The position numbers and the translations under genes were made by a program. Shown here one piece after another: positions 5,281 to 62,441 of a stretch of 64,000 nucleotides of DNA (position 1 is the stretch's first letter; the number at the start of each line of letters is the position of its first letter). Where the stretch lies: the NCBI GenBank assembly GCA_000002445.1, contig AE017150.2:192001-256000 (forward strand). The letters run 5' to 3'. The notes beneath the pieces were generated by a model, which was given only the letters and a program-made list of their open reading frames with translations, ran no database searches and was not told the origin of the DNA. This DNA comes from Trypanosoma brucei. Its lineage: Eukaryota.

Positions 5281-5298
5281 AAAGGATGCCAATTAGCA

Positions 5299-5335: not shown

Positions 5336-5336
<1 letters not shown>

Positions 5337-5590: not shown

Positions 5591-5602
5591 ATGAAGCAAA
5601 AA
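5591..5602. repeat. Target-site duplication (AATGAAGCAAAA), 5' side of the RIME
   Basis: Exact 12-bp copy of 5049..5060. A 12-bp TSD is the known ingi/RIME signature. Confidence 0.8.
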
Positions 5603-23312: not shown

Positions 23313-23613
23313 GATGCATTGAAGTGTGTAATAAATTAGTGCATGAGTAAACTATTCAAATGTTGGTGTTTAATTCAAATTATAAACTCTGCACTATGAA
23401 TGTCTCTCGATGTTTATAATTTGAGAGAGCAAAAGTGACGGCGCTACTATTTATTTCTTCCAGTTCATGAATATATAAATATATTTATACATATATAATC
23501 AGATGTGACATGCAAAAGCGTTTAAACATCAGGCATGAACATCTTTCCATTCATTTAAAGTAAGACGATACAATAAGGTAAGTTTAGGATGAAGTGAAGG
23601 TATCATAATGTTA
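23313..23613. repeat. Dispersed repeat A, copy 1. It is in direct orientation relative to 62138..62441.
   Basis: About 300 bp at ~90% identity. Confidence 0.8.
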
Positions 23614-24157
23614 ATATCTTCCTTCAAGCGGAGGATTCAATTTAAATAGGCGTACTTCACAAACAATAGTAAAATAACTGAGAAAACTTATATCACTTAA
23701 TCGTTATTTCCTTCAATTCTTATTTTGAATCGCTCTGTACCGTCACACCTTCAATAAAGTATATAGTGACGCATTTCATACATCCTACCTAAGCCATCTC
23801 TCATAGTCATAGCTCTCAACAGCAATAATAACAAATAATGAATAGTTTAGTTCTTACCTTCCCTTTTTACTACCGACAAGAAAGATATACGAAATAATTA
23901 TCATGCTGGATAAACAGTAAGCGTTCCTCATTATCCTACACAAAATATGAATTGAAACGATAATTTACTAACGAAGCGGAAGTGTCTGAAAGCGTCTTTA
24001 ACCCGTCTCCTGTGCGGGGCGAAGAGGGTTGTGTTGTGTGGGCTTTCTAAAAATTTCACTCTCTTGCAGACAGCTGCGTAAATAAACGGGAAGTACAGGT
24101 GTGTTTAGAGAAATATAACCGTACAAAATAATACTCTGCACTCCTATGACCAAAACC
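23610..24157. repeat. Dispersed repeat B, copy 1. It is inverted relative to 61563..62106.
   Basis: About 545 bp matching the reverse complement of 61563..62106. The A/B junction falls on GTTAAC. Confidence 0.8.
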
Positions 24158-24849
24158 ATTCATAATGCAGGCTTTCAAAATACACGACATCATCTCAACA
24201 AATTGTAATTATTTTTTTTTGCATAATGTCCTCCAGAAGACAGAACAACAGATGACACAGTTAAATAACACATGACAAACAAGGAATATAACCGCACATC
24301 CTCAGCAGTAAATGTTTCAGTTTCTCCTTTAAAAAAAACAAAGAAAAATAAAACAGTTTCACACGTGTGGTCCAAAAGCTGCATCAGCCAATACAATATC
24401 TTGACAACTTGTCATGCAATCTTGCCTCAAGAAGAAAATAAAACATTCATCTCTGCTTTCCCTTAATTGATAAATGAGATCCCATGCTGTGTTAACTCAC
24501 GTCTCCATTCAAAAAGTTGACTCAACGTTGTGACGAGGCAGTGACCAAAAACAATCCAAATGCAATTCCAAATTTCTTCATATTACGTTTTCAGTTTTAT
24601 TACACATTTCCCCAACCATTCCGAGTACTAACAGGAATAATTTGGTTCTATAATAATGCATGTGTTTTCTACAGCTCTTTCATTTTGTTATGATCCGCAC
24701 AAAAATTATATATGTGGTTGTTGATTCGTCCGGTTAATCAAAGTAACAATCATAATAATTAATTTTCCCCTTTTCTTCATTTTTTCTATTAGCACATGTG
24801 CACCTTGGTGAGATCACTTTCACTCATTTGCACTGATTGGTCAACACTA

Positions 24850-27958: not shown

Positions 27959-30484
27959 TCACCCTCCTTGCGCTCCCGCTTGCTCGTTGCGTGGCTGCGG
28001 CGCAGGCTCCATGGCCAGAAGTGGAGCATCCCGATACCAACATTCATCTCTATATGCTCGCATTAGCTGCCCCTGCATTTCTTCCCTTAACGTTACTTGG
28101 TATTGAGCCATGTTTCTCCACATATCTGCCGCTTCGGCGGGGTTGTCGCCATCACAAAGCTGCCATCTTGTAATCACACCACCGTTAACCGAATTAATGT
28201 ATATCATCTCCCAAACCATGTTGCGGGAAAACGCACCCCAATCAGAAAAATATCTTGCCATGTTTTCTCGGAACTTCTTCACCTTATCCGTAGTGGTGGG
28301 GTGCCTCTCCGACTTGGTTACTTGTAAAAGCACAGCTATATTTGGAGTGGTCGGTGGCGCTGCTCCGTCACGGTTTCTCCTGAACCGCCCCTCAACGAAA
28401 AAAAAGCCATCCACCACGGGTTCATTGCCTGTGGCAGGGCGGTAGAGAACCATGTATTCACAATTATCAATTGGTTGCTGGTGGGTCGCAGGTAAGGCCT
28501 TCTGCCCAATGAGTCTCAACTGCTGAGGAGCCATGTCGTTCAGTATGCATCGTTTCTCTTCCAGTCCGCCAGGCCGCTGCAGGTATTTTAAGTTTTCTGC
28601 GATAACTTTAAAAACTCGAGGGAAAAGAAGCGAAAGCAACGCCCTTGATTCAAACACGTTGGCTGCGGCACTCTCGTCTGACATCGTAACTTGACAGATA
28701 GCCATTTTCTCCACATCAATGGCAAGCAGTTTGAAAAATATAGCATTCCCAATGCAAACCGAAAGTGGCCGGCAGCGGTATTCATCGACGCTCTCTCCGG
28801 CATCTCGCACACGGACGATTTTCACTAACCTGTGCGTTACCTTATCATTTCGCCAATCGGCAATTTTCCCCATTATGTCCTCGTAGTGACTTTTGTTGTC
28901 ACCATTGATGGACGTTATCATCTTTTTTGCCTGAGACACACGTTTTGTGTACCCCGCGCTGTTGTAAACGCAACGAGGCACTGGCCCAACCACATTAATA
29001 CGGCTCTTTATTGTTTCCCACTCATTTTCAAGTTCTTCTACAATCCTCGCCTGAGCTTCTTCATCAAGTGCCGCATAGCCTGATGCTACAGACAGCTTAG
29101 TCCATGCCACAAATGCCTTCATGTCACGCACATCATCGCAGTTTATAATAATTCCTACGTCTCTCTTGTCTTTTGACCAGTGATGAAAATGGGCCTCATC
29201 CGGAGAAGTGAGGAGAGTTACACCCCAAGCGTGAACCGGCAGACCATCGGGTGGCGTCTGCGCATTCTTGCATATGTCAACAATGATGTGCCCTTTTTTT
29301 TTCTTGAATACTAACGCAGCTATGACCCTAACAGCAGCTTTCACGTCTTCATATTCCTCAACCCTTCCCTCTTCCCCGGGTTTCTTGTTATATATTAAAT
29401 AGGCGATCCCGTCTGTGAAATACGCAACAACATCAAACATTCCTTCATGGAAGTGAAGCAATGAATGAAGCAAAAATGATCCAACACCGTATGATTTACC
29501 AATACCAGGTGTACCAATAACAATATGTCTCGGTGTTATATCAGCTTTTTCCACCCACCTTCCTTGCAGCCCTCGTTGGATTATATACCACACGCGCATA
29601 ATTTCACGACGGATATATACATGTTTAAAATTTTCCCAGCATATCTCAGCGTCATCCAATGCAAACCTGTTGTATGGCCAACCCTTCTCCGAAGTGAGAA
29701 CAAAAATCTCTAAACCATAAGGTCTCTCCGGCACTCGTGCATCAAGATTCGCAGGAAGAGGATTTATATCCACCTCTTCTTCAGTCCACATGTGTGGCGG
29801 TCTTCCATCGAACACTTTCATGCCAAGTGGCTCTTCATCATAACCCGACATCACATAACTCCATTTTGCATTATAAATGGAATCATACACTCCTTCAAGG
29901 TATACAGCACCATCAGATGCCTGGGCAGCTCGCTTTTCCGCTCTCTTGGCGGCTATCACTGCAGCATCCAACCTTCCCCTCGCCACGGGACCAACAAATT
30001 CCCTTATTTCTCCCTTTCCCTTCTCCTCCCACTGACTGAGGGTGCTAATTTCCTTTTCGTCAAGGTAGTCTACCTTCTCAGACAGATCAATAGCTGTCTT
30101 CACTGTTTTAAACTCATCAGTGCCCCGTACCCTTCCTAGAAGCCTGGCATCCAAAATATAATCCTCCGGGCTCTGAACAAAAATGGGCATCCTAACATTT
30201 TCTGCTTCAGCCACCGCAAAAGTCCCGCCAACGAACTTCTGAATAAAATCGTTCACTGTCATATCCCTCAAACCCGCATAATCCTCCAGCAGCACATCCC
30301 TCACCTTACTATCCATAGTCCAGTTGGGCCCCCCTTCAGTTCTCTGCCGTATTTGTGGAGGCTGAGCAGCAGGAGGCGGTACATTTTCATCCCGTGGTCT
30401 CCTCATGGCTGCTCCAAAATTACCTGCCACTTGTGGATTTTCATTATTTCCTTGTGGAGCTGCGGGACTATTTGCCCTTGACAT
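27959..30484 (-). CDS. RHS: RHS protein, intact 841 aa. MSRANSPAAPQ start at 30484; the listed ORF extends further upstream to 30601.
   Basis: Full-length ORF with GTPGIGKSYGVGSFLLHSLLHFHEGM, an unoccupied hot spot at 29464..29475, and the C-terminal PVVDGFFFVEG and WEMIYI motifs. Confidence 0.85.
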   Translation of the reverse strand: MSRANSPAAPQGNNENPQVAGNFGAAMRRPRDENVPPPAAQPPQIRQRTEGGPNWTMDSKVRDVLLEDYAGLRDMTVNDFIQKFVGGTFAVAEAENVRMPIFVQSPEDYILDARLLGRVRGTDEFKTVKTAIDLSEKVDYLDEKEISTLSQWEEKGKGEIREFVGPVARGRLDAAVIAAKRAEKRAAQASDGAVYLEGVYDSIYNAKWSYVMSGYDEEPLGMKVFDGRPPHMWTEEEVDINPLPANLDARVPERPYGLEIFVLTSEKGWPYNRFALDDAEICWENFKHVYIRREIMRVWYIIQRGLQGRWVEKADITPRHIVIGTPGIGKSYGVGSFLLHSLLHFHEGMFDVVAYFTDGIAYLIYNKKPGEEGRVEEYEDVKAAVRVIAALVFKKKKGHIIVDICKNAQTPPDGLPVHAWGVTLLTSPDEAHFHHWSKDKRDVGIIINCDDVRDMKAFVAWTKLSVASGYAALDEEAQARIVEELENEWETIKSRINVVGPVPRCVYNSAGYTKRVSQAKKMITSINGDNKSHYEDIMGKIADWRNDKVTHRLVKIVRVRDAGESVDEYRCRPLSVCIGNAIFFKLLAIDVEKMAICQVTMSDESAAANVFESRALLSLLFPRVFKVIAENLKYLQRPGGLEEKRCILNDMAPQQLRLIGQKALPATHQQPIDNCEYMVLYRPATGNEPVVDGFFFVEGRFRRNRDGAAPPTTPNIAVLLQVTKSERHPTTTDKVKKFRENMARYFSDWGAFSRNMVWEMIYINSVNGGVITRWQLCDGDNPAEAADMWRNMAQYQVTLREEMQGQLMRAYRDECWYRDAPLLAMEPAPQPRNEQAGAQGG
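29464..29475 (-). other. Unoccupied hot-spot target site AATGAAGCAAAA
   Basis: Same 12-mer as the RIME target-site duplication. Confidence 0.7.
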
Positions 30485-33461
30485 AACTCTCTTAATATTA
30501 ACGTAACTTAACTTCCTTTCCTTTTCTTTTTTCTCTGAAATTATAATTAACTGAATTAAAATAATAGATAAGGAAACAATAGCGGGTGAACAGTGTAACA
30601 TAATATCAAATGTAATATAGCGCGTTAATGTTTATTCACTATTGTTTGTATAATATGATATCATAATGTATTTGGTATTAAGAGGAACAATTTCAAAATA
30701 TAGCAGCTGTAAATAAATATTTCCCTTGCTTCATTATCATGTGCTAAATGTAATATATTCCTGTATCATTCTTTTTAAACCATATATAATATGGAAACAA
30801 AAAATATTACTGCCTCATATACCTGCATCAACACTACGTATATATAATCAATATTTAAAGAGAGTCAAATTCTATCAATTAAAATCAAGTAAAACAATAA
30901 ACAAAAAATTTATGGATATTAATGAAGCGAAGAAATAGAGTATCGGCACAACACAAAGATATACACACACATGGATACACACGGTTACACAACTGCTTCT
31001 TTATATACCCTCCCCATTTTTACAATACGTAACATTCACTTGCATTGAAAGAATTTATTGAAAATATAAATCACTTATCCCCTCCCCCGTGTAATCACTG
31101 ACTTCCAAAGGAGAATATTAAATAATGTCTGTAGGACAGGTAAAAAAAACTGATAGTCTTTTTGCATCAGATAACCAGAAGGTATTTCTGTTTACTTTGA
31201 TTATAAACAAAAACATCATTTTGCCTTCAGTTAAAATAAAATTGATTTACTTGCCTCCTCACTGTTCACAACTAACAACAACTAATTCAGCCCCACATAT
31301 TCACATGAATCTGATGTGCCATGGGTGTTGAATCCATTCACACATCTTCCATGATAGCGATGATACAACATATTGTAAATAATTGGAATAAAATTAATAC
31401 AATTAATTGAGGAAACCGTAAAAGATTATCATAACACATTTTTAAATTTCACTTCCTTTCATTTACACAGATTAAATATGTAATGAGACAATTCCCTTTC
31501 AGTACGTGTCCACACCTATTGTATCATCATTGTAAGTTTCCTATTGCTCATATACACAAAGTTATTATAATAACAAAAAATAAAACAACTCATTGAAACA
31601 ACTTGAAAAAATATATAACAAATAAAGGTAATAAAGAGAATGAGCGTGAACTGACAGATAATAAAATGAAACATGTCTCGCACTTCCCTTCTAAATATTC
31701 AATAGTTGGCGGATTACAAATAAAAACAATTACACATTATAAAAAGGAAAGGATATAATTACATTATGCACCTGCATGAGGATATGTAACAGCGAGTCAT
31801 AGTAGAAATAAATTGCCTAAACACAATAGTTATGGAAGATAAAATAATTCAAAATATCAAAAATATTATTCTATCAACATTCCCTTCCTCCTCCATTAAG
31901 TTTCCAATGGTTTCAAATAATAATTCACATAATCCCATACATATGTTACGATGGGTATTGCATGCAGTACAATTTAAAGGAAGTGTAACTCATATAACAT
32001 TTTCAAAAAAAAGGTATTGAATGACTATTTGCTACCATCAATTACATTTCCAATGCCTGATTACACTTTTATATGCATGAAGGAAGTTACTGATGATAAC
32101 TTTGACATGCTCGAGAATCCATAACACAAAGCGACAGCTGCATGCAATAAAAAATAAAAATAAAAATAACATCCGAATTCATTTACTGACAGATGAGTGC
32201 AATTCATTCACCCAAACTTCATAGCTGTAAACATAAACTCGATGCTGCCAATAGGAAATAATCCCGCATAAATATTGAGTATCTGAAAATGATAGCAACG
32301 GGTTTCCATTTTTGAAATATATTCATAAACTACATGAGGTATATGAAGCCATATTGGTAAAGTGTCACTACGCATGTTGCAATTTACTATCAAAAGTGTC
32401 TGCCTTATTTTATTTCTTGTGTTACTGTAACTCATGAGTATCATTCATTATTCTTTACAATACAACTGTAAGTCATTTTGCATTTTTACATATTTTCTTA
32501 TTCTCTCATACTGGAAGTATTCCACATATGAGATTCCTCAATATCGTTCACAAAATAAAAATAATTTCATTTCCTTCTGCATTCAGTTTCTCGTGCAGCA
32601 GTGTGTGTACTAATCATCCATAAAGTTTTTAATTTGCCAAATACATCATCACGAAACTATTTTCCACAAATAAACAAACATACAAATCATTGGGACAATA
32701 TCTTTGAGATATTTCCTTCACTATATTTGCAGTTCAGTAGTGATTAAAATACACTTTTCTGTATAATTCAACACATGGTGGAATTGCAAAGAAATGTGAT
32801 AGTACTTATAATCAATAAGTTCTCAATTTTCCTCACACGGTCTCCTTTCATGCCTTTACATCCTTATATAATTCACAGAGAATTACTGCAATTTCTTTCA
32901 TATGCTTTCAGGATTCCATATGTCACAATACAAATAATATATATATATTTGCTCTTACATAATTTGCACATAATATTGCTTAACATATAAATTATCACAA
33001 ACCTATGACATTACACTCCTCCTAAGAATAATAGAATCAAATCATTTCTATTTTGCATCATTACATGAAGCTTTGGAAAATGGAAAAAAAAGAATCAAAC
33101 AAAAGGTAATGTAAAGAACACAGTTTCATAATACAGATTAAAACTTGTTTGTGAGTGTCAGATGCAAACACAAAATGTTCAAACAGGGAAACAGTAAAGG
33201 ATGTTACTGGTGATGTAAGCACAAATTAATCAAAAATAGAAACATAAATAAAATTGAAACTTGTAAAAACACAAATATATATGATACAAATATTTACCAC
33301 ATATTATAATTCGCCACCCTCACACTTGAATTATAAAGAGTACATAATACACATATGTGGTAAAACTAATACAACTCGAATATACATATGTGCCATCTTC
33401 TTAACATAATCATTCCAATATTTACTCAGTGTGTGTGTGTGTAGTGATGATGAAATGTAAT
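30485..33461. repeat. Intergenic repeat block U2, copy C (the longest copy)
   Basis: Collinear with 6617..8805 and 21190..22812. Confidence 0.8.
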
Positions 33462-42372: not shown

Positions 42373-44562
42373 TATTACTGAGCGCTGCTTACGCACGCAG
42401 CTTATATAATGTCACATGCGTTGTGATTTGTAGAGGGGAGTGGGCCACCAGAAATTAGGTCATTTTAATGTCAATAAGTTTTTACCGCTTGTTGGAGCCG
42501 TCATTCCCCGCACTTAACCGTTTCGAACCGAGGAGTTGGTAAAAGACGGCCAATCAACGGCATCGTCGACACCGTGGCCATCAGTACGGGATTTTACATA
42601 CGGTAACGAAGCGTGGGCATATGTTTTTCTTTAAACGTCATTTTTTAAATTTTTCTGTACATTGTTGCTGTCACTTCTACGAAGTATGGCCAGAATGTTA
42701 GAGTAGTGCATTTGTGTGCAAAACGAAGAAAATAATACTCCCCTTGTTTTTCTTTCCCTCTTGGGTTGTATGAAAAGAGGGGGCTCCTGTTTGTAGGATG
42801 ACAAGAGCTGTTTTGTTTCTTTCCTCAAAAAAAATTACATGCTCCATAGTTGCTCCAATATTCCCATCCCTTCATTGGAAAATGACCCGACGGCTCCGTC
42901 CATGTGAGTGAAGCGGTGTCCCTGATATTTGCCCTGATGCTTTTTCTTTTTTCCACCGTGGAACCTGCACTGCACTGCACTTGCGTTCCCTCATCCCCTC
43001 TTACAGTTATCCGTTTCACTTCCCCTGTTGAGGGATGCGTATTTCCAACCGCGCGAGATATCAAACAGTAAATCTGTCGGACAAACAAAAGGCTAAGAAA
43101 TTCGTCACATAAACTTATGAGCTTTCACCACTGAGGCACGCACGCTCACCAACACCAACAAAGTCAAGCAAAAGGCGCTGCATATTAATACTCAATGGCG
43201 CCATAATGTTCCCTTTCGTGTTCCCTTTTCCCTCTTCCTTCCGTTGGGGTTACACAACACTTGTGGGAACCCGCTTCACTTCCTCCTTTTCCAATTATGA
43301 AGGTAACTGTGTTTTGTTTGCCACACTTCCGCTTGTTATTTCTCCAACTGGTTTCACTTTCAGAAGTCGCGTGTACACCACTTGTGGAGAAAATATTACA
43401 TTAAGCAAAACCAACAACGAAAAAAATGGCAATACATTCTAAAACATTCCCTCAACATTGCAGAACTCATGAAAGGAACCATGGTTACTGCCACCAGGCT
43501 AAGCAAAGACCAAAAGGCTTTTGAAATGTGTTTTCGAATCGAATGTACCACTGGTATTTCTTTAACATGCAAACACAACAGAAATCACGGCATGCACGAA
43601 CACGAGTGCCAAGCTTCTTATAGAGATATTTCAATACCTGAAAAAGGGACCGGGACGCAAAGTTTGGGGATGGAATTTCCCCGCCTGTAGCGGTGATTAT
43701 CTAAGACATTCAATCAACGCATTTCCGACTGTCCACAGTTAATCGGAAACCGTAGTGACCATATGTCTCCCTAATTACTGTTGTCCCTTCAGTTTTCACA
43801 GTAGATGTTTCAATTGGCTTCTGCGGCCGAGGTAAATAAAGCGTATGCGTCATATCCGGGAGGTGTTTTCATGTGTCTTCGCTTTCCGTTTTGTCACTGC
43901 GTTTGGGCTCACGCAATGACATTAATTGAAATTTAGGCCACTACCATAGATGGGTGGCTCGTGGAGGGAATGAAGATTGGGATTATTCTAACAGCTTTGT
44001 GGTTGTGTGTGCCGTGCTTTTGGAAAATATTGCAGCCAATGAAAGGGAAGGCAAGTGTCACCTTGCTTTCCATGCCGCGGCATCAATGCATAAGAATTAT
44101 ATGCTAGTTGCTCTGCAAGGGAAGGTCGTGAAGGCGAAGGTTAGCTTCCGGTTTAAGGAAGTGCAAAGACTTCCTGATACTACTGTCAGAAACTACTGTT
44201 GCTGCGTGCTCCAGGCACTGGGTCAGTAATTCATAAATACAGCAACGAGAATAAAATTAATCCCTTGTGGCTGCTAAGCGTGTAAGCAACTGAGAATAAT
44301 AAACAGTATATTTTTGCCACACTTTATTGATTTCTTTATATATACAAAACAACTACACTGCAATTATTTATCGTTTCTCTTTTCAGTTGGAGGACACCGA
44401 ATAAGGGTTAGGATTACTGACCATAACACATTTTGGCATGCACCTCAATTACTTCCTTATAACACTTCCCCCCATTTGATTCATCGCTTAGCTCTATTAT
44501 TAAAAAAGAAAAAGCATTTCCTCAACACTCAGCACCTCAAGGAATCGGAAACGGGAACCACA

Positions 44563-47500
44563 ATGTCAGGAAACCAAGGAAGAAAGCGACAGCGCAGCTC
44601 ATCACCTGAGCAGTCAGAAGCTTTAAGGGAACCATCAACTACTGAACAAAATAAACTCACCACCGTTACAATCACCGAAGAGACGCGTGACGCCAGTAAT
44701 GATGAAACTGTGGTATCATTACTGAATGAGCATAAGAAATTGATTAAACAAACGACACGGCTGGAAAGCAGTGTGAAGGCACTTAGGTGTTTCATGAGTA
44801 ATCTCACAGCTATGAGTGGCGAAAGGCAAGGTGGTGTGTGTGATGACACCGAATGCATACATAGAGTAACATTATATAATGCTGCTGATAATGCCTTCAG
44901 TGACGAAGGACTATATGAAGGTGCTCTTTCCTCACTCTGTGGCCGCATTCATACCAAGAAATTAACCATCACGTTATCAAAAGGTTGGAAATTTAACTTA
45001 GAACGAGTCAGTAAGCTAAAACAGTTGGAAGAGTTACGCATTGAATATCCGCGTGGCAAACTTGTGAATATGATATCTTTGAAGAAACTGCACATGTTGA
45101 AAAGGCTTTGTCTCAGGAGCAACAATATTGACAACAATGATATTCACTGCATATTCAGTGTTGGAACATTGGAGGAGTTGGTTATTACTGACACCATGCA
45201 ACTGACAAATATCAGAGGAATCTCTCGCTTGACTAACCTGAAGTGTCTTGAGTTAAATTCCACAGATATTGACGATAGCTGTATAGGGGAAATAAGTGCA
45301 TGTGCTAAACTGTCCAAATTGAGTGTATCCGAATGCAACAATATCACGGATACAACCCCAATTTCACAGCTTGAAGCACTGGAAGAGTTGAATCTAAACA
45401 GCTGTTACCACATAACGAAGGGAATAGGAACAGTTGGCATGTTGTTACGATTGCGTATACTTGACTTGAGTGGTGTTCCTGTGGAAGATAATTGTCTGAA
45501 GGGTTTGTGTGATTGTGGATCGCTTGAAAGGCTGAACATTTCTTATTGTATTCAGCTGAAAGATATCAATCCACTCTCCAATGCCACTGCTACTGAGGAA
45601 TTGAACCTTAACGGTTGTCGCCGAATAACACGAGGGATAGGCGTTGTGTGGGCATTACCAAAACTCCGTGTATTGCACATGAAGGATGTGCACCTGAGCG
45701 AGCCATCTCTCGATTCAGTTGGGACTGGTGGATCACTTGTAAAGGTCAGTCTTGATAACTGCGCAGGCTTTGGTGATATGACACTCTTATCCAGCATTGT
45801 TACACTCGAGGAGCTGAATATTCAAAAATGTGCTGACATCATTAGTGGTGTGGGTTGCCTTGGTACACTACCGTACCTGCGTGTACTTAACATAAAGGAG
45901 GCACACATCTCGTCCCTTGACTTTACTGGTATTGGTGCCTCAAAATCCCTTTTACAGCTCAATATGGAGAGTATCACGGGACTGAGTAATGTGGAAGCAC
46001 TTGCCAACATTTTGACTCTGGAAAAACTAAGCCTTCACGGCTGCACGGGTATTGACGCAGGAATTGGTTGTCTCGGAAACCTGCCACAGCTTAAAATGTT
46101 GGACCTGTCTGGCACAAATACCGACAATGAGTCTCTCAGAAGTTTATGCCTATCACAGACAATGGCGTCCCTCAACCTTTCCCATTGTTGGAAAATGACA
46201 AATGTGTCCCATATTTCAAGCCTTGAAGCATTGAATGAACTGAATCTGAGCAACTGTTTTGGAATAAATGCAGGATGGGAAGCAATTGAAAAACTTCAGC
46301 AGCTACATGTGGCAATCCTCTCGAATACACATATTACTGATAGAGGCATATCCTATTTTAGCAAGTGCAAAAACCTTGTTACGCTTGATCTTTCTTTCTG
46401 CAATAAGTTACTTGATGTTACAACTCTCTCCAACATCACTACGCTTGAGGAGTTGAATCTTGATAGTTGTTCAAACATCAGAAAAGGGCTGAGCGTTCTT
46501 GGAGAGTTGCCATGGCTTTGTGTGTTGAACATAAAGGGTGTGCACTTGAAAGATTCAGTTATTGTTTCACTAGGGAACGGTAACTCATTTGTAAGGCTCA
46601 GTCTTGAGAACTGCAAAGGGTTTGGTGATGTCACGCCTCTCTCAAACCTTGTTACACTTGAAGAACTGAATCTCCACTACTGTGACAAAGTAACCTCTGG
46701 AATGGGAACACTGGGCAGGCTACTGCAGCTTCGTGTACTGGATTTGGGACGGACACAAGTTGATAATAATTCCCTTGAGAATATCTGCACAAGCTCAATC
46801 CCACTTGTATCATTAAATCTTTCGCATTGCAAGAAAATAACATCTATTTCTGCAATAGCTTCCCTTACGGCATTGGAGGAACTCAGCATTGGCAACTGCT
46901 GTAATGTAACATCCGGTTGGAATGTATTTGGTACACTTCACCAACTGCGTGTCCGTACTGTCAAACACACGCATTAATGATGAAAAAATACGGCACGTTA
47001 GCGAGTGCAAGTCTTTGAATACACTCAACCTTGCGTTTTGCAAAGATATAACAGACGTCACAGCACTTTCTAAAATTACTATGCTTGAGGAGTTGAACCT
47101 TGATTGCTGCCCTAACATCAGAAAAGGTATTGAAACTCTTGGAACGCTTCCCAAGGCACGTATCCTAAGCATGAAGGAATGTTACATGGGAGACGGATAT
47201 GCGCAACAATGTTCCATCCTTGGGAATAGTAAGTCACTTGTGAAACTGAATCTTGAGAGGTCAATGGGATTCATACCTGTGAAAGCTCTCTCTAACATTG
47301 CAACGTTGGAGGAATTGGTACTTGATCATGCACGGGAAGTATGTTGTATACCGTCATTTTCCTGTCTACCGCGCCTTCGAGTACTGAATCTGAAATATAC
47401 AGATATTAATGGTGATGTAACTAAAAATATTTCCGAATCGAAATCGCTGCAGTCACTCAACTTATCACATTGCAAATGGGTAACTGATATATCAGTATTA

Positions 47501-48745
47501 TCTTCATTATCAACACTGGAGGAGCTGAATGTTAACTGCTGCAATGGAATACGAAAAGGCTGGGAGTCGCTCGGGAAGCTGCCTCTACTACGTGTAGCAA
47601 TTCTATCTGATACCAACATCACCGCTAAAGATATAGCTTGCCTTAGCAGTTGCAAAAAGCTGGTGAAACTGCAGTTTTTCCGGTGTGAGAAGTTGTCAGA
47701 TGTTACGGTGGTGTATAAAATTCAATCACTGGAGGAACTGATAGTTAGGAGCTGTTCAGACGGCCTCAAGGGACTAAATGACCTTGGTACACTCCCACGG
47801 TTGCGTTTTTTCCATCTGCGAAATGTGAGAGGTAGTGATATATCTGTTGAATCTATTGGGACGAGCAAATCTCTCGTGAGGCTTAATATTGAAGTGGGCG
47901 AGGAGTTAACAGACATAACACCCCTCTCCAACGTCACGTCCCTTGAGGAATTGTCATTGCGGGATTACCGTAAACCCCCGGAAGGAGTCTGGACACTTGG
48001 GAGGTTACCACGGCTTAAATCGCTGGATCTCGGTTTATCTCGCATTAGCGATAGCACACTTTATTATATTTGTCTGTCTCGATCAATTACGTCACTCAAC
48101 CTAGACTCCAGTTGGAAACTAACAGACATATCTCATATATCAAACCTTACGGCACTGGAGGAATTGAATCTGAGCGGATGTTACCGCATAACTTCAGGCT
48201 GGGAAGCACTAAGCGAATTACCACGACTTCGTGTGCTCAACTTGAAATCCGCCAGTGTCACGACGCGTTACGATGGATATTATATCAGCAGATGCAAATC
48301 CCTCGTCACACTGAATATTCAATTGAGTGATATGACCGATGCTTCATGTCTTGCTAATATCAAGACACTGGAGGAGTTGCATATAGGGAAATTCAAAGAG
48401 CTAACGCAGGGGTTTAGTGCACTTTTCACTCTTCCGAGGTTACGCATTCTTGACCTGTTTATGTCGCGCATTACAGATGAAGATCTCAGGGAAATTCAAC
48501 CACCCCATACCATTGAGGAACTCAATCTTTCTTATTGTGAGGAGCTCAATGATATTACACCACTTGGGAGAATAAAATCAATTAAAAAATTGCATCTCCG
48601 TCAGAGACATGATGTCAGAACGCCCACAGAAGGATTCAGAAGTCTTTTGGAATTGCCATGTCTTTCTTGGGTTGACCTAGACAACGTGTGTGGCTGGTCT
48701 GATGTTTCTTGTGAACTGAGAAAAAGGAGGGTACATATCCGTTAA
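44563..48745 (+). CDS. LRRP: Leucine-rich repeat protein (LRRP, ESAG8-like LRR family), about 1390 aa. The reading frame breaks once near 46950 (a -2 shift), so this is either a pseudogene or a sequencing error.
   Basis: ORF 44314..46977 (real start probably MSGNQGRKRQR at 44563) and ORF 46922..48745 together hold more than 40 tandem 23-25-aa LRRs of the LEELNLSxCxxITD / LxxLxxLRVLxL type. Repeat periodicity is continuous across the frame break (…GTLHQLRV / LSNTRINDEKIRHVSECKSL). Confidence 0.75.
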
Positions 48746-55458: not shown

Positions 55459-56937
55459 TAATGATGAAACAGAGGTTACGGAATATACGGAAAGGAAAAG
55501 TTGTGGTAAATGTCCTTTCAGCCAAACCTGACGCCAATGGAGTTGTGCACTCCGAATCAAAGTTGAGGTGCAATCAGCATAAACAACTAATGAGTGCGTA
55601 CCATTGTGCCAGAATTGATTAATTTTATTTATTTTTTTGCCATTGTTCAGCTCAGAATGATTAACATTACATATGGAAATCATTTGTCGTAGGAATATGC
55701 GTGTTGATGGAAACACTGCGCTATCGTTTATATCATATATTAATAGTTGATTTCATAACTTTAACCCCTTATTATGTTTTCTCTTGATAATTTTTATTTT
55801 TATGAAAAGGAAATAACATTTTGTATTGTGTGTGCTGTTGGAAATGATGCATTCAAAATCTCATTGGTCGTCTCATTGTATATGTTTTAATAACTGTTTC
55901 ATGTATTTCCTACATCTCTTTCTACCATTGTTATTTACGATCAGCGTATGTTTGTGATTATGTAAAGGGTTTCTTGCGTGACGTGACATCATTTTACTTA
56001 TCGTTAATTTAGTGCAGTGGTATTATTTTAAGTTTCCAATTATGCAAGCACTTCATTATTAGTAACATGGCATATATCTTATTTCTTCACTCTATCTTTC
56101 ATGTCATTACTTCAAATCACATTGAGTTCAGAAGCGCCGAGTGAAAAAAAAAAAAGGCATGTAGTGGGGGCACTTTCCCCAATCATTGACGAAATGATGA
56201 TGCTCAATTGTCAGCCAGTAACTTCTCCAACTGTGACGCACAGTTTGTCATTTTTAATTGAAAACAAAAAAAAAGTGACATGTTGAAATATGCTTAGTAA
56301 CCAATACCATTCGTTTTTCTTACCATTACTTTTCAACCGTTGGAATCTCCCAAAACAATTGATCATGATTTTAGATTCATGAGTGAAATACTTTAGGAAC
56401 TGCATGTGTGCGTGTCTGATCCTTGTGTATATGCTCATGTATGATCTCGAATCAGTGGAACATGTCGTCAAGGGCTAACGTGAAAAAGACTGAGTGGATC
56501 AGGTTATATATATTTATATATATATTTGTATTGTGGTGACTCTTTGTTTCTAACCTTCCTCTTTACCTTCATCGCTTGTTGATTTTTTATTATTTGTTGT
56601 TTCATTTTCTTTGGATGAACAATCATGTGTGTAAACAATATGTTTTTCCTGCATTGTGTATAGGTGTAATTACGGACTACACGAAACTCATCAATTTGTT
56701 TGACGCATGGTCGCTGAGGTAAATGTTGACACAGATATTGTATTTTAGGGATTGACCTTCATATAGGGATAGTGAGTATTACCAAATGAGTTACAGTAAG
56801 TAAATCCTGATTCAATTGAATCCTTTTAATATTCTTTTTTTTTGCGCTATTATCGTATTATTTTTCATCAGTCACTCCATTTCAATTATTTTTAATCATA
56901 AAGTAAAGAAGGTTGAGTTAATAATATTAAAAGAGTT

Positions 56938-57162
56938 ATGTCAAGAGCAAATAGTCCCGCAGCTCCACAAGGAAATAATGAAAATCAACAAGTGGCAGGT
57001 AATATTGAAGGGCCCATGAGGAGGCCACGGGATGAAAATGTACCGCCTCCTCCTGCTGCTGCTCAGCCTCCACAAATACGGCAGAGAACTGAAGGGGGGC
57101 CCAACTGGACGATGAACAGTGAGGTTGAAGATGTATTGCTGCAACGCTATGCGGCTTTGTAA
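56938..57162 (+). pseudogene. RHS: RHS N-terminal fragment (MSRANSPAAPQ module, 74 aa), truncated at ~57160
   Basis: MSRANSPAAPQGNNENQQVAGNIEGPMRRPRDENVPP...GGPNWTM reads on to a stop where intact copies continue LEDYAGL. Confidence 0.75.
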
Positions 57163-57164
57163 TT

Positions 57165-57654
57165 TTTTCGCTGTCAACCCTTTGAACATAAATTATTTCC
57201 CATACCATATCATTGGAAAATTTGTCCCAATGTTTGAAGTAACTTCGCAAATACTTCTTCATCTTAAATAACCCACTGGTGCTGCAGTATTGTTTATCGG
57301 AAATTGTGAATTGCAGTCCCACAAAAGTCTTCGGGTTCTCAACAAAAAAGAACGCATCAACAACTGGGAAATTTCCTGATTGCGGCTTGTACAAAATCAT
57401 GTATTCAATTTCAGTTCCAGCTCTAATTGTAGAATCATGAGCAACCTCAATCAAAGGATTCGTGAGTCTTGCTTCTTGCAGCACCTGCAGCACACTTTGT
57501 GGAGTTTGATTCCTAGCAAATGAGAGGCCCCGTAACTCCTTTGCCAACTCAATTAGTGCATCCTCATGCGACAATACTTCAATGTCACTCTTCTTGAAAC
57601 GATAAGCAGCGAGGGTACGGTTAGACAGCAGTTGAGATACTAAAGCAGACTTTT
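57165..57654 (-). pseudogene. RHS: Divergent RHS C-terminal-domain fragment, in frame with the upstream ingi fragment
   Basis: Part of the 275-aa ORF 56936..57763 (minus). YMILYKPQSGNFPVVDAFFFVENP and NDMVWEIIYVQRVD match the RHS C-terminal signatures (PVVDGFFFVEG/WEMIYI; PVADAFFIVDD/WEIIYVQH) at roughly 30-40% identity. Confidence 0.6.
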
Positions 57655-57724
57655 CCTGTATAAAAGGTGCTAATCTCTTTCCTTGAGATAACCCGGCGCA
57701 GTTCCACTGCATCCCGCGCAACGA

Positions 57725-57748
57725 CGGGCCGGGATTCTCTTCCACATC
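57725..57748 (-). other. 2A-like self-cleaving peptide motif DVEENPGP at the ingi ORF1 N-terminus
   Basis: Direct translation. D(V/I)ExNPGP is the canonical 2A motif known from L1Tc and ingi. Confidence 0.7.
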
Positions 57749-57909
57749 ACTGGACAGCAGCATCTTAGTGGGGATGATACTGCTGATGGCACGCTAGCCA
57801 CGTGCCCAGGGACCGACAAATGAAAAACGGTGTCCCAGCAAGACGCTGCTGATCCCTGTGCTGTATGATGCCGTAGCCGGAGCACAGCAGTGTTCCCCAT
57901 GAAAGGAAC

Positions 57910-57988
57910 GCTGCTGGCTCTTGGCTTCCCCCGATGAGACGGGGCACTGGACCCTGACACCACCTTGATGTGGCCAGCATCACCAGGG
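57910..57988 (-). promoter_or_regulatory. Pr77-like 5' hallmark of ingi
   Basis: First ~79 nt of the element. Function is inferred from the literature. Confidence 0.4.
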
Positions 57989-60900
57989 TGTGTAAAAGGT
58001 TTCAGTCGATCTGAAATAGCTTCCCCCGTGTAAGATGAAAGTGGCTTGCAGCGATGCGTATCATTCCACGTAGCTGAGTGTCGATAATCCTCAAGCTACT
58101 TGATACTTTTTTACTCTCTTCTTACATTTCCCTTTCCTATTAGTATTTTTTTGTTTATACAGAGCGATACGACAGAACATTGTAAAACGAGTGTGAAGGG
58201 TCTGGCTTTATTTGTGTGGCTGTGGTGAAGGCATGTAACTTCCTCTCCCTCTTGTTGGGTCATTTCATTATGCCTCACCAATTACATCATATACTTCTTG
58301 CCTTTTCTTCTTTTACTCCACTCAAGAGAACCTTAATTTAAAGATACAAATAGGGACACGTATGCTGAGCACTTGTTCTCTCCTTTCTTTACGAGAGAAT
58401 TATTTGATGCATCATAAGCATTAAAGGAGACGTTTCTCCACATCTGCAGGTATCTTCATTTTACAATGGGAAACAACAATATCAGAACATGCACGCATTT
58501 ACAGTTCTACAAGGCCAGAGCTCACTCTTGACTTTTAGCTGAATATATATATATATATATATACCAATATAAAAATAAATATTTTTGCGATGATAATGCA
58601 AAATAATATAGTGCTATACATTTATGGAAGATCAAGGACATTTATGTTTTTGTTCTCATAATATTTTACACATGATGAGTCACAGCAGTCTTTATTTGTT
58701 TGTGCAGGTGCAACTTATGTGTCTGCGATATGTATGCTGGTGTTATTCGTTTGAGTTGTTTATTGGGTGTGAATAATACCTTTGCTAGGGATTATACTGC
58801 ATGTGTTCACTAAACCATCTTAATGTGTTTGTTTTTATTGAAAGCTTGCGTTGAGAATGTTTTGGGCTTATGTTTTCTCATAATACTCAACTATTCTTTT
58901 ACTCTCGCACTGAAGCTCTATGCAAGAAGGAAGGTGTAAGTTTAAAAAACTTAGTTTTGAAGTGCCAAACATGTCCACTTCAGTACACCCATCACTAACG
59001 GAAATTACAAATCTTCACAGAGTGGTGAGTTTGAGTGGGAGTTTCCGAACTGGCGGGAAGAGATGTGAATGTACGAAGTAAGAACAGAAGAATATCACCT
59101 GATGTGTTCTTTTTGAATTTTTATAAAGCAACCAGACACGATGTTACACATATGGTCAAGTGAAGTATTGCACTACAACTTGTCAAATAAACAAATTTGC
59201 AGCAACTAAAGGGGAATAAATGCAACAACAGGTCCCTGAAGCATGGAGTTGAGTGGTCTTTAATTATAGCATAACCAAAGCTTCACAAAGGAAACACCTT
59301 GAAAAACATTCTACAATGGGAAAGTAAAAACCATGCAGGAGGAAGTCACCTGAAAGGGGTGGGGAATAAAACGGTGCGTCACTCTTTTTAAAAAATACAG
59401 CAGTCCCTCAGCAGCTGAGGATTGAAAAAGGAAAATGGAGTGACACCAAGAGCACTTTTGCAACCAATAGTAAACTCATTGGTGAAAGGAGTTATTATTT
59501 TTATTGCAGTTCCCACACAAAGCTGTCCGTACATTATGGCATTGGTTTCAGGAACCAACAGAATAGCAAAGTGAATGTGGCCGAGGACTAAAACATGTGA
59601 GCGATAGGAATTCGTCATGTGGAGTTTTTATGCATTGGCGGAAAATCATTACCGAACGACAGCATAGGATGTAACTGCACTTCTATTTGTTGTTGTAAGT
59701 TTACGACTCTCAGAGAGCAACGCCATTTCAGTACAGGAGAGCTCTTCCATCATCTCTATTGGACACACCGACGCGGATGTTGTTTTTGGGTCCGTCTTTA
59801 CAGTACGGTAACAGGTGAACCCATCAAACAAACACAACACATGTTGTAATGGGGATTCGATAATATCTTGCAGGAAGTTCCGTCCAGAGTGGTATCCAGT
59901 TGCAATATCAATGGAATGAATTACATCCAGCCATTTGATGGCAAAAAGAAATTACACAGCTCCAAAAAAAGAGCAAAATGTTATACCACACTCACACGAA
60001 AAGCAAGCCTCAATAGTGGATTTTTTTGGGAACCTTCCAAAGAAATTCAAAAGCGATACCCACATACTCACACGATGCGTAATTATCAACTGGGAAAAGG
60101 ATATTGCCAGTGTGAGAAAAGTCATAGGGAGGAACCCAGTGGAAAGGGAAAAATCATAGCCATTACCACAAAGGGGAAAAGTGACACCATACTGAAACGA
60201 CCACACGTAATGATAGAACATCCCATAAAGAGAAGAGCACTGCTGACACGCGCAGCGGCAGTAGTTGCAATGGAACACAACATTGACAACATATTATTAA
60301 TACAATTGGGAAAGCACATCTACACAATGGAACTTCCACAAAGCACAGTGCGGTATTTCAAATGTGTGACAGCTGCCGTCAGCAAGTCGATTCTTTTAAT
60401 GTTTTTGATGTAAGATACAATTGGAAGAAATGTGCAGCCTCAGTGTGAGGGAAGCCGGGACTTATAACAGGGAATACCTTTCCAAATTATTGAGGGCACA
60501 ACATTCCTTGACACTCACAAGGGAAAACAAAGGTGACATCACGGGATGAGGAAAAAAAAGACTTCACCTCTCCAATAGGAAATGAATGTGGGAATGATTT
60601 CCCTTCCGTGGATTTGACAGAGGATGATGCAAGCAGCGAGTAAACAATTTGATGAGGTTTGGAGAACTATGAATAGCACAGATGATGTGGAAAGAGAAAG
60701 TATAAAACAAGGAGTCTGAATTGCACATTGCAGAAAAGTATGCCCAAATAATGAAGCAGCCGCGTATCATTGGCACAGTTTCAGAGAGACATACGACAGG
60801 ATGGGTTGTGCGCCATTCTTTGTGATGGAGGAAAAACAGAATTGGAAGAAGGCGTTGATTTATTGCATGACCAAAGGCTAAAAAGAGCAGGGATGATTGT

Positions 60901-61562
60901 GAGGCATATGTCCCATTGTGTCACTTTTCCCAGTTGATAATTACTCTCCATGACCAGTCGGTGGCAGTGTTTGATCTAAAGTCATTTCTCTCCCAAGTGA
61001 AGTTGCCTGAGGATATTCGGGTGAGGTTCCGATACGTTAGCGAAAATGAGGAACTATTGAATTTGAATCGACTCCCCATCAGTTAATAAAGGAAGCACTG
61101 GAGTTTTACACACCATCACAAGGGTCTTTTCAGGGGGAGCATATGTCGTGAGGCTGCAGCAGGCGACCCCTGAAAGATTGAGGACTCAAACATGGATATG
61201 CAACATATGTATTAGTGTGAGGCACATGACGTGGTTAAATGTCGTGGAAACAAAATAGTTACGAACATGGAGGAATGTGAGGCATACTATCATTGGTGAT
61301 TTGCAAAAGATGACACAACAATGTGATTTCATTGGAGTTTTGGTTTAACCATGAAAAGCAGACAGTATTGCTGGGACAACGAAAGTGACACAACAATTAC
61401 GAGTATCCCTTGCTATATGAAAAAAACTACCATAGAATAAATGGAAACTGTTGTATCACGCATGATGTACGTGGCAGCAGGAGTGAGAAAAAACAATAGC
61501 TTTCCCCTTAATACTACTACTGCTACTTATTTTTTTAATGAAAACCTGCATTACGAATGGTT

Positions 61563-62106
61563 TTGGACTTAGGAGTGCAGAGTATTATTTTGTACGGTTA
61601 TATTTCTCTAAACACACCTGTACTCCCCGTTTATTTACACAGCTGTCTGCAAGAGAGTGAAATTTTTAGAAAGCCCACACAACACAACTCTCTTCGCCAC
61701 GCACAGGAGACGGGTTAAAGACGCTTTCAGACACTTCCGCTTCGTTAGTAAATTATCGTTTCAATTCATATTTTGTGTAGGATAATGAGGAACGCTTACT
61801 GTTTATCCAGCATGATAATTATTTCGTATATCTTTCTTGTCGGTAGTAAAAAGGGAAGGTAAGAACTAAACTATTCATTATTTGTTATTATTGCTGTTGA
61901 GAGCTATGACTATGAGAGATGGCTTAGGTAGGATGTATGAAATGCGTCACTATATACTTTATTGAAGGTGTGACGGTACAGAGCGATTCAAAATAAGAAT
62001 TGAAGGAAATAACGATTAAGTGATATAAGTTTTCTCAGTTATTTTACTATTGTTTGTGAAGTACGCCTATTTGAATTGAATCCTCCGCTTGAAGGAAGAT
62101 ATTAAC
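61563..62106. repeat. Dispersed repeat B, copy 2. It is the reverse complement of 23610..24157.
   Basis: Sequence comparison. Confidence 0.8.
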
Positions 62107-62137
62107 GATCCAACAATATTAGATCACCGAAAGGATC

Positions 62138-62441
62138 AGATGCCATTAGGAATGTAATAAATTAGTGCATGAGTGAAATATTCAAATGTTGGTGTTCAAT
62201 TCAAATTATAACCTCTGCACTATGAATGTCTCTCGATGTTTATAATTTGAGAGAGCAAAAGTGACGGCGCTACTATTTATTTCTTCCAGTTCATGAATAC
62301 ATATACACACATATATATATATATAATCAGATGTGACATGAAAAATCATTTAAGCATCAGGTATGAGCATCTTTCCATTCATTTAAACTAAGACGATACA
62401 ATAAGGTAAGGTTAGGCTGAAGTGAAGGTATTATAATGTTA
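62138..62441. repeat. Dispersed repeat A, copy 2. It is in direct orientation relative to 23313..23613.
   Basis: Sequence comparison. Confidence 0.8.

Follow-up and report, generated by a model that had tools for sequence, protein, structure and literature searches.

A tail-less ingi stub within a rearranged RHS1-type pseudogene remnant of Trypanosoma brucei hints at insertion of 3'-truncated ingi copies

Introduction

How did the complete 5' end of an ingi element, from which the entire remainder of the element is missing, come to stand in frame with sequence of an RHS C-terminal domain and next to an RHS N-terminal fragment of opposite orientation? The question is raised by a locus within a stretch of 64,000 nucleotides of T. 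brucei DNA (contig AE017150.2, positions 192,001 to 256,000; hereafter the window), two of whose RHS proteins are identical to the T. b. brucei TREU927 chromosome 2 entries XP_951495 and XP_951496. RHS subfamilies are defined by their C-terminal domain (PMC7563717), and RHS pseudogenes interrupted by ingi or RIME are known from Bringaud et al. (2002, as summarized in PMC7563717), the insertion hot spot being located five codons downstream of the P-loop motif. For Tbingi and TbRIME a target-site duplication (TSD) of 12 bp is the rule (PMC3820030), and end joining in T. brucei was reported to employ microhomologies of 5-20 bp with mismatches being tolerated, while NHEJ was not seen (PMC3045614). 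The features identified at the locus are collected in Table 1.

Table 1. Features of the locus in window coordinates, sorted by position.
Feature	Position	Strand	Remarks
Segment A, RHS 5' fragment (~38 nt 5' UTR, ATG 56938, codons 1-74, MSRANSP...)	56900..57159	+	RHS homology ends at 57159
Incidental 275-aa ORF	56936..57763	-	32 ingi codons, ~172 RHS1 codons, ~71 antisense codons of the RHS N-terminal fragment
Junction J1, 10-nt microhomology TGCGGCTTTG, 1 mismatch	57150..57159	.	Comparison of L003 and two window RHS copies
RHS1-type C-terminal fragment downstream of ingi	57150..57656	-	AAL14358 aa ~610-780, L003 6347-6853
Downstream TSD copy ACCTTTTATACA	57657..57668	-	Single copy in L003 at 6335-6346
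ingi nt 1-320 (1-322 counting the AC common with the repeat)	57669..57988	-	306/322 identity to T. b. equiperdum ingi L001 2486-2807
Upstream TSD copy ACCTTTTACACA (one T>C change)	57989..58000	-	Adjoins the ingi 5' end
RHS1-type fragment upstream of ingi	57989..58063	-	RHS1 aa 587-609, L003 6272-6346; tblastn DTHRCKPLSSYTGEAISDRLKPF; blastn 96% to L003
Junction J2, 12-nt microhomology CGATGCGTATCA, 2 mismatches	58052..58063	.	Three-way comparison
Segment X, normal 3' flank of RHS1-type genes	58052..61540	+	Collinear with L003 7150-10672; blastn 90.8% over 3.5 kb

The ingi stub

The initial annotation had described the ingi piece as 3'-truncated with a complete 5' terminus, which was confirmed, as nt 1 lies at 57988 and the match stops at nt 320-322. 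With normal Tbingi and TbRIME copies the stub shares the 5' terminus opening CCCTGG, the Pr77 region (57912-57988), the ATG (57763) and the 2A motif DVEENPGP (57725-57748), the identity amounting to 95% over nt 1-322, as well as a 12-bp TSD; MQWNCAGL is likewise present. Normal copies, however, carry a common 3' part of 250 nt followed by poly(A), whereas between nt 320-322 of the stub and the downstream repeat neither an ingi 3' end nor an ingi 3' half nor an A-run was found. The 32 ingi codons left provide no coding capacity for endonuclease, RT or RNase H.

An origin from RIME was considered for the stub and rejected. TbRIME consists of ingi nt 1-~250 joined straight to the ~250 nt of the ingi 3' end, and alignment to the RIMEs of the window placed the RIME/ingi divergence point at 57740; since the match extends past this position, going 70 nt beyond the switch point without a 3' half thereafter, the stub derives from ingi and not from RIME.

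Pr77 had been annotated as intact, which holds insofar as the region is present from nt 1 but not with regard to its sequence, which departs from the consensus by seven copy-specific substitutions within nt 1-51. The DPE position (57961-57964, +25 to +28) reads GGTG instead of the expected CGTG, and given that the CGTG DPE at +25 to +28 was found to be essential to Pr77 (PMC4748587), the idea that the stub brings its own promoter is not supported. An Rfam scan of positions 56000-59000 at E<=1 returned no matches, a result by which the HDV-like ribozyme reported for Pr77 cannot be judged.

RHS1 origin of the C-terminal sequence

Beyond the ingi part, the minus-strand sequence had been taken for a genuine RHS C-terminal domain, and tblastn was in agreement with this, yielding 25-38% identity to the other RHS copies of the window, including NFPVVDAFFFVE and WEIIYVQ. 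Pfam returned a weak RHSP match to the end of the P-loop domain (last ~43 positions), which stayed below the gathering cut-off. Queried with the entire 275-aa ORF, a word-indexed protein search retrieved ingi 5' ORFs alone and no RHS protein, yet this result turned out to be a false negative, as an exhaustive phmmer search and an RHS1-seeded search found relatives at 71-90% identity. When the ingi part and one repeat copy were removed, blastp gave 90% amino acid identity over 193 ungapped residues to XP_845147 (P0079), whose 90% cluster includes AAL14360.1, named RHS1 (Bringaud's RHS1); identities were 87% to XP_844174, 70-71% to the RHS1 protein AAL14358 (phmmer against representatives: 71% to RHS1 P0014, query residues 2-172) and 31-34% to the non-RHS1 proteins P0080 and P0081. 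At the DNA level the T. b. equiperdum cluster member P0104 stood in for TREU927 XP_845147 and XP_844174, and the T. b. equiperdum paralogue L003 was found to be 96% identical by blastn. As judged from these identities the RHS part is RHS1-type, which contradicts the view of a further RHS subfamily; the domain is unlike the other copies of the window only because none of those possesses an RHS1-type C-terminal region.

The RHS1 proteins AAL14358, AAL14360 and XP_845147 and the locus thus correspond in the C-terminal domain (70-90%) and in the N-terminal fragment (84% to AAL14358 aa 1-75). They differ in that at the locus codons 1-74 and 587-780 alone survive, on opposite strands and without an RHS_N or P-loop domain; a tblastn search with RHS1 did not find codons 75-586 (RHS_N, P-loop) at the locus.

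Target-site duplication and insertion site

The RHS sequence upstream of the ingi 5' end (58063..57989) had been missed in the initial annotation. The ingi piece is bracketed by a 12-nt direct repeat, ACCTTTTACACA and ACCTTTTATACA, whose copies match at 11 of 12 positions. Projected onto L003, window 58063..57989 corresponds to 6272-6346 and window 57668..57150 to 6335-6853, the overlap of both intervals in L003 being exactly 12 nt. Because RHS1 codons are found on both sides of ingi and the repeat is single-copy in the paralogue, the ingi/RHS junction is, as read from the sequence, an endonuclease-type insertion boundary and no recombination breakpoint. The earlier claim of a breakpoint inside ingi is contradicted by this boundary, both inversion breakpoints being located in RHS DNA.

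The element inserted into the C-terminal domain where the codons match RHS1 aa 606-609, and its own staggered endonuclease cut left the canonical 12-bp TSD. This site differs from the classical hot spot, which in the intact RHS (27959-30601) falls at aa ~379 (29463-29475 in the window), and is located ~230 codons downstream of it. The window also holds a RIME (5072-5589) at the hot spot, which ends in a normal A-tail followed by the TSD. With regard to a conserved endonuclease recognition pattern upstream of the TSD, TTGGAT at -9 to -4 is common to three other sites (the RHS hot spot, L001 and L004), while the stub site reads TCGACT, matching at only three of six positions.

Inverted arrangement and its joints

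The MSRANSP-type RHS N-terminus on the opposite strand was verified (56938..57162, plus strand). Segment A gave 84-85% by blastn to the two window RHS 5' ends at 6377-6654 and 30269-30524, and by tblastn RHS1 aa 1-75 are 84-85% identical to it. The pieces had been described as head-to-head, which has to be corrected: they are convergent, tail to tail, with their 3' ends meeting at 57150-57159. The C-terminal fragment breaks off ~55 codons before the end of the domain, so that the stop codon is missing as well as 130 nt of 3' UTR, and L003 6854-7149 has no counterpart in the window.

On the other side, segment X is in the order that is kept on the T. equiperdum contig L002 as well, namely RHS 3' end followed by X. 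In comparison with L003 and L002, which are paralogues (84-96% in the gene, 91-93% in the flank) and represent neither orthologous loci nor the ancestral state, X keeps the orientation of the N-terminal fragment whereas the RHS1-C plus ingi block is reversed, and hence the inversion proposed for the locus is real. Both of its joints fall into short patches of homology. At J1 the RHS N-terminal references read TGCGGGTTTG, while TGCGGCTTTG is the reading of the RHS1 C-terminal reference in reverse complement; at J2 CGATGCGTATCA is a hybrid of two parental versions, CGATGCATATCA from reverse-complemented RHS1 and CGATACGTATCA from the 3' flank. J1 and J2 fit into the T. brucei MMEJ range (5-20 bp, mismatches tolerated), which the 2-nt ingi/TSD joint does not.

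The 275-aa open reading frame

The annotated ORF of 275 codons, leading from an ingi start into an RHS C-terminal domain, was recovered with its ATG, its 2A motif and the RHS part in frame. Its composition needs revision, however, as the ~210 codons beyond ingi had all been attributed to RHS, while ~172 are RHS codons and the final ~71 are antisense to the N-terminal fragment. At the exit from ingi the ORF reads ...GKRLA|PFIQEKS, whereas genuine ingi ORFs go on as ...GKRLALHKTLVDERIAF and ingi proteins run on as ...LHKTLVDERIAF, which the ORF does not. The possibility that ingi ORF1 simply continues with the same sequence, which the initial annotation had itself named as fatal to a chimera, was rejected on these grounds: since real ingi ORFs diverge after GKRLA and carry a different sequence past the junction, the chimera is real.

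The ORF would be a by-product, in which the ingi ATG by luck shares the frame of the RHS1 codons (a one-in-three chance) and which stays open as the antisense strand of the GC-rich N-terminal fragment happens to be without stop codons. Codon changes of the RHS part as compared with the paralogue L003 (17 nonsynonymous, 6 synonymous) are near neutral. A functional product is considered unlikely in view of the mutated Pr77 DPE, the seemingly neutral substitutions and the antisense sequence with which the ORF closes.

Proposed history of the locus

The locus is probably the wreck of an RHS1-type gene, shaped by the insertion of ingi, present as a truncated copy, and by a microhomology-mediated rearrangement to A-C'-X, with the ORF arising incidentally. 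The source would have been one plus-strand RHS1-type gene which lay between the ATG at 56938 and the 3' flank that begins at 58052 today, whereby placing segments A and C in the same gene is an assumption; the closest C-type genes (672 aa) have an N-terminus different from segment A. The rearrangement would have kept segment A, inverted segment C (codons 587-780 and the ingi stub) and rejoined the flank X. It would have cost the locus codons 75-586 with both P-loop and classical hot spot (segment B) as well as ~55 terminal codons plus 130 nt of 3' UTR (segment D). An inversion of the simple kind, involving a single pair of inverted repeats, was rejected, since segments B and D would then have remained in inverted form, and both are absent. 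The junctions themselves are seen in the sequence, and two mechanisms would account for them: the template may have been switched twice in the course of replication or break repair, or a flipped fragment may have been joined by MMEJ. The order in which insertion and inversion are presented here implies no sequence in time, as the structure alone does not tell.

The end-joining events characterized in T. brucei by Glover, Jun and Horn (2011, PMC3045614) resemble the joints of the locus in their imperfect, GC-containing microhomologies, here of 10-12 nt, and in that one joint is a hybrid within the homology patch. They differ in that they were simple deletions, taking place between direct repeats close to an induced break, whereas at the locus the homologies are inverted, the middle part is flipped and ~1.5 kb and 0.3 kb were lost on its two sides.

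When the ingi 3' end was lost

The stub ends exactly at the repeat, with which it shares 2 nt (AC) at the joint. On balance, the copy was more likely than not 3'-truncated already when it integrated. Reverse transcription would have begun near nt 320, either at an internal position of the ingi RNA or on an ingi RNA already shortened at its 3' end, and would have proceeded to the true 5' end, and it is this proposed start which would explain why the stub adjoins the downstream repeat without poly(A). A search for further truncated ingi copies by means of annotated ORFs gave P0001, P0002 (locus L004) and P0008 (locus L005) as informative cases, the others being frameshifted ingi or RIME. At L004 of T. 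b. gambiense ingi nt 1-421 are directly flanked by TGGCTACTCTACA and TGGCTAGTCTACA, and this site carries TTGGAT at -9 to -4 just as the RHS hot spot and the full-length ingi do; an empty-site paralogue of L004 was not present among the sequences compared. P0001 (BES15S03c) leaves ingi at ~nt 426, as seen in the protein only, and the third truncated copy, L005 (ingi nt 1-308), shows no recognisable repeat. Truncation at integration draws on two loci, the window stub and L004, and is favoured because L004 independently shows the same pattern.

Alternatively, a full-length ingi (~5.2 kb plus poly(A)) may have inserted normally and a later deletion may have taken away everything from nt ~323 through the A-tail, stopping by chance at the first base of the repeat; this deletion could have been a third template switch of the inversion event, made when the polymerase stalled at the A/T tract. 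Such a course of events is conceivable, if doubtful. A complex rearrangement is demonstrated at the locus, the AC at the joint might be a microhomology, internally deleted ingi derivatives such as RIME exist (PMC3820030), and L005, being truncated without a repeat, documents that damage after insertion occurs. Against this, the end of the deletion would have had to hit the boundary between element and TSD within 2 nt of ~5 kb, and the same coincidence would be needed independently at L004. Furthermore, a joint of 2 nt is atypical of a later deletion, since the MMEJ joints measured in T. brucei span 5-20 bp and NHEJ was not observed there (PMC3045614), and since the two joints of the locus itself comprise 10-12 nt.

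The model put forward initially, according to which two RHS copies recombined or inverted with one breakpoint inside an ingi, so that the ingi 5' end was fused to the C-terminal domain of an unrecognised RHS subfamily with a Pr77-driven, 2A-processed product, is highly improbable. It could appeal to 275 open codons with an intact DVEENPGP motif, to the merely 25-38% identity between the C-terminal domain and the other RHS copies of the window and to the word-indexed search that had returned no RHS match; but RHS1 codons with a 12-nt duplication flank ingi on both sides, the domain is 90% identical to a protein of the RHS1 cluster, which exposes the empty search result as a false negative, the DPE is mutated (PMC4748587) with substitutions being neutral, and the C-terminal domain is truncated and then continues into antisense sequence.

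Highly improbable, too, is that the inverted arrangement is a cloning (BAC) or assembly artefact in a repeat-rich RHS cluster. Such clusters are highly repetitive, and short inverted repeats of the kind in which both joints are located can also give rise to chimeric clones or misjoins; but the window contains no second RHS1-C plus ingi block to mis-assemble, the joints are clean hybrids, independently assembled related loci have collinear flanks, and TREU927 chromosome 2 is a finished sequence.

Comparison with other systems and significance

In endonuclease-independent L1 insertions TSDs are typically lacking and the copies are also 5'-truncated. The stub resembles these insertions in its missing 3' end and poly(A), yet differs from them by its complete 5' end and canonical TSD, which point to a normal endonuclease cut combined with an abnormal start of reverse transcription. 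With the RHS pseudogenes interrupted by ingi or RIME (Bringaud et al. 2002, as summarized in PMC7563717) the locus has in common the disablement by an ingi-clade element, the 12-bp TSD, the location in the chromosome 2 RHS cluster and the nature of a mosaic, rearranged copy; it differs from them in that the site is located ~230 codons past the hot spot, the element has no 3' end and the gene body containing the hot spot is deleted.

As a gene the locus is without importance, being a further decayed, rearranged RHS1 pseudogene remnant of a cluster that is well studied, and neither a new RHS subfamily nor an expressed 2A fusion should be upheld for it. It is, on the other hand, a clean natural case of a flipped segment joined via inverted microhomologies of 10-12 nt, within the range measured experimentally in T. 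brucei, and it shows RHS clusters to be scrambled without long homology.

Whether ingi can in general integrate 3'-truncated, poly(A)-less copies whose 5' end is complete and whose 12-bp TSD is canonical is evenly poised. After a normal endonuclease cut, reverse transcription would in this case begin at an internal position of the ingi RNA or on an RNA with a shortened 3' end, such as a product of degradation or RNAi cleavage. If true, the stub of the window (nt 1-320) and L004 of T. b. gambiense (nt 1-421) would be two independent instances, and the ingi machinery would have no strict need of the element's 3' end or A-tail for priming. The lack of such a strict need would also fit the non-autonomous elements of the ingi clade, which share mainly a 5' signature. 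Ending exactly at the TSD, the stub and the L004 copy bear on template recognition in the ingi clade, that is, on a start of reverse transcription away from the RNA 3' end, and the stub, enclosed by a perfect insertion footprint, hints that ingi can insert tail-less copies.

Composition of the 275-aa ORF

The 275-aa ORF proposed in the initial annotation exists (56936..57763, minus strand), and its codons 1-32 are ingi (MLLSSDVEENPGPSLRGMQWNCAGLSQGKRLA). The ingi match extends beyond 57740, where both RIMEs of the window change to their 3' half, hence the ingi stub (57669..57988, minus strand) stems from ingi and a RIME origin is ruled out. The stub starts with the true ingi 5' terminus (CCCTGG at 57988), and comparison with L001 2486-7753, a full ingi copy of T. 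b. equiperdum, yielded a match for nt 1-322 only (306/322 identical), which then ends, confirming the proposed 3' truncation with retained 5' terminus. Ingi ORF1 itself was found not to continue with RHS-like sequence, as authentic ingi ORFs read on as ...GKRLALHKTLVDERIAF, and therefore the chimera is real. The next ~172 codons encode a genuine RHS C-terminal domain with 25-38% identity to four other RHS copies of the window (tblastn), NFPVVDAFFFVE and WEIIYVQ motifs included, and the final ~71 codons are merely the antisense of the RHS N-terminal fragment 56938-57162.

A word-indexed protein search with the ORF returned no RHS relatives, which is a false negative: a 90%-identical annotated RHS protein was missed, the first 32 residues of the query belonging to a highly repeated element. 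Negatives of such searches with chimeric queries are not trustworthy. An exhaustive phmmer search identified RHS1 AAL14358.1 (71% identity, residues 609-779 versus query residues 2-172), and an RHS1-seeded search followed by blastp identified XP_845147 (90% identity over 193 ungapped residues) and XP_844174 (87% identity); AAL14360.1, deposited as 'RHS1', belongs to the 90% cluster of XP_845147. Since it is the C-terminal region that defines an RHS subfamily (PMC7563717), the domain is RHS1-type and does not represent a further RHS subfamily as suggested before; it looked unique only because no other copy in the window has an RHS1-type C-terminal region.

Ingi insertion into an RHS1-type gene

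RHS1 also matches directly upstream of the ingi 5' end in tblastn, where 58062..57994 encodes DTHRCKPLSSYTGEAISDRLKPF (RHS1 aa 587-609), and the RHS1 part downstream of ingi begins at aa 606. With a T. b. equiperdum RHS1-type paralogue locus as nucleotide reference (L003; CM010673.1, gene 5001-7019), L003 6272-6346 corresponds to window 58063..57989 and L003 6335-6853 to window 57668..57150, each with 96% identity, whereby the two L003 matches overlap by exactly 12 nt (ACCTTTTATACA, one copy in L003). In the window, the stub is flanked by ACCTTTTACACA (58000-57989) and ACCTTTTATACA (57668-57657). A fixed 12-bp target-site duplication (TSD) being the hallmark of Tbingi/TbRIME integration (PMC3820030), this duplication, single-copy in L003, documents that ingi entered the RHS1-type gene via its own staggered cut.

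The classical RHS hot spot, five codons past the P-loop motif (PMC7563717), is found in the window at 29463-29475 of an intact RHS and at the RIME 5072-5589, which possesses a normal A-tail followed by the TSD TTTTGCTTCATT. The stub's insertion site is a different one, located ~230 codons farther downstream. Three ingi/RIME sites (Table) share TTGGAT at -9..-4 from the start of the 12-nt duplication, which looks like an endonuclease recognition pattern, whereas the stub's own site reads TCGACT at these positions. In the region 11037-11600, the RIME (11037-11508) within the RHS pseudogene at 9.6-12.5 kb resides at the hot spot and lacks its first 22 nt; its A-tail is nearly absent (...GAAGAAAATTTC/TGCTCC), and ~90 nt of unrelated sequence (11509-11597) separate it from the upstream RHS half.

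Absence of the ingi 3' end

Only ingi nt 1-320 are present (1-322 when counting the AC common to stub and repeat), and before the downstream repeat neither an ingi 3' region nor an A-run was found. Truncation at integration is considered reasonably likely, based on two positive cases; here, reverse transcription would have started at an internal position of the ingi RNA, or used a shortened ingi RNA, and would have run to the 5' end. Possibly, a full-length copy instead lost 4.9 kb afterwards by a deletion stopping precisely at the repeat. However, T. brucei end joining uses 5-20 bp microhomologies, with NHEJ not seen (PMC3045614), while the ingi/repeat joint comprises just 2 nt, as compared to 10-12 nt at both true rearrangement joints nearby, which favours truncation at integration. 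So does an independent T. b. gambiense DAL972 locus of the same anatomy at a TTGGAT site (L004; FN554973.1:562733-569335), whose 3'-truncated ingi (3120-3570, nt 1-421, without poly(A)) is directly flanked by a 12-13 nt repeat (TGGCTACTCTACA / TGGCTAGTCTACA). A third truncated ingi (L005, nt 1-308) has no flanking repeat and counts against truncation at integration; a fourth copy, BES15S03c, is truncated at ~nt 426.

The final ingi bases in L004 (TGGCTACC) look like the start of the flanking repeat, and L004 4814-4887 is a 74-nt inverted copy of the truncated ingi's 5' flank. Annotated T. theileri and T. grayi ORFs (P0125, P0128) join an ingi-like 5' ORF ('BES15S03c') to a GP63 (Peptidase_M8) domain, and a GP63 gene adjoins the truncated ingi in L004 too; ingi 5' ends and GP63 arrays may thus be recurrently associated.

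Inversion of the RHS1 block

The normal RHS1-type 3' flank (L003 7150-10672) corresponds to window 58052-61540 in plus orientation (90.8%), and the T. equiperdum contig L002 likewise shows the RHS 3' end followed by the flank. Compared with this flank and with the N-terminal fragment, both in plus orientation, block 57150-58063 (RHS1 codons 587-780 and ingi stub) is reversed; the codons for aa 75-586 and L003 6854-7149 have no counterpart at the locus. At joint J1, TGCGGGTTTG is the version of the N-terminal references and TGCGGCTTTG that of the reverse-complemented C-terminal reference; at joint J2, CGATGCATATCA (from reverse-complemented RHS1) and CGATACGTATCA (from the flank) are combined into a hybrid. 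The postulated inversion hence took place, but both breakpoints reside outside ingi rather than one within it, and the RHS pieces join 3' end to 3' end, not head-to-head.

In the simplest layout, a plus-strand ancestor A-B-C-D-X (A, 5' UTR and codons 1-74; B, codons 75-586; C, codons 587-780 and stub; D, 3' end of the gene; X, 3' flank) would have been converted into A-C'-X, C' being inverted C. A simple inversion would have left B and D in place, yet both are absent. The pattern fits two template switches guided by microhomology or MMEJ of a flipped fragment.

Coding capacity and promoter region

Nothing in the sequence suggests the 275-aa ORF to be functional. Its RHS1 part differs from L003 at 24/582 nt, and the codon changes (17 nonsynonymous, 6 synonymous) appear close to neutral; the C-terminal domain lacks its last ~55 codons, antisense sequence following instead. 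Copy-specific substitutions of the stub amount to 7 in Pr77 nt 1-51 versus 4 in nt 78-322. One changes the DPE motif CGTG (+25..+28), essential to Pr77 promoter activity in L1Tc and conserved in ingi/RIME (PMC4748587), to GGTG; another falls into the CCACC box. Transcripts from Pr77 undergo no splicing and, according to one study, are poorly translatable (PMC3383444). At the extreme 5' end (57938-57988), 5/7 copy-specific substitutions affect C positions; candidate causes of this cluster are errors made as reverse transcription nears its end, conversion by a divergent element and ribozyme/promoter decay.

Genomic setting

XP_951495 and XP_951496 (T. brucei brucei TREU927, chromosome 2) exactly match two RHS proteins of the window. 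In the leucine-rich-repeat (LRR) region (44314-48745), long plus-strand ORFs of 887 and 607 aa, both rich in LRRs, lie in different frames with ~55 nt overlap; the region looks like one LRR protein gene split by a frameshift. A repeat pair ~37 kb apart (23327-24177 / 61539-62441; 568 bp inverted, 98.4% identity, and adjoining 289 bp direct, 92.7% identity) encloses the strand-switch region with the adenylate-cyclase-like fragment, the LRR pseudogene and the rearranged locus; related sequence is also present past the RHS 3' flank in L002 and L003.

Table. Features of the window and of reference loci
Feature	Position	Strand	Sequence
RHS cluster	1-33 kb	minus	
RIMEs inside the RHS cluster	5072-5589 and 11037-11508		
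TTGGAT site, RHS hot spot	window 5590-5615		GTTGGATCAT/TTTT...
TTGGAT site, full-length ingi	L001 2460-2485		GTTGGATTAT/TTTA...
TTGGAT site, T. b. gambiense truncated ingi	L004 3108-3132		ATTGGATGGT/GGCT...
Adenylate-cyclase-like fragment	39.9-40.6 kb		
Leucine-rich-repeat gene, frameshifted	44.3-48.7 kb		
RHS pseudogene	53.5-55.4 kb	plus	
Rearranged RHS1/ingi locus	56.9-58.06 kb		
Joint J1	57150-57159		TGCGGCTTTG
Joint J2	58052-58063		CGATGCGTATCA

The locus is a rearranged RHS1-type pseudogene remnant in which a 3'-truncated ingi occupies a site other than the hot spot. As such it is of a kind ordinary for an RHS cluster, the sole moderately unusual feature being a tail-less ingi lying flush within a canonical target-site duplication.
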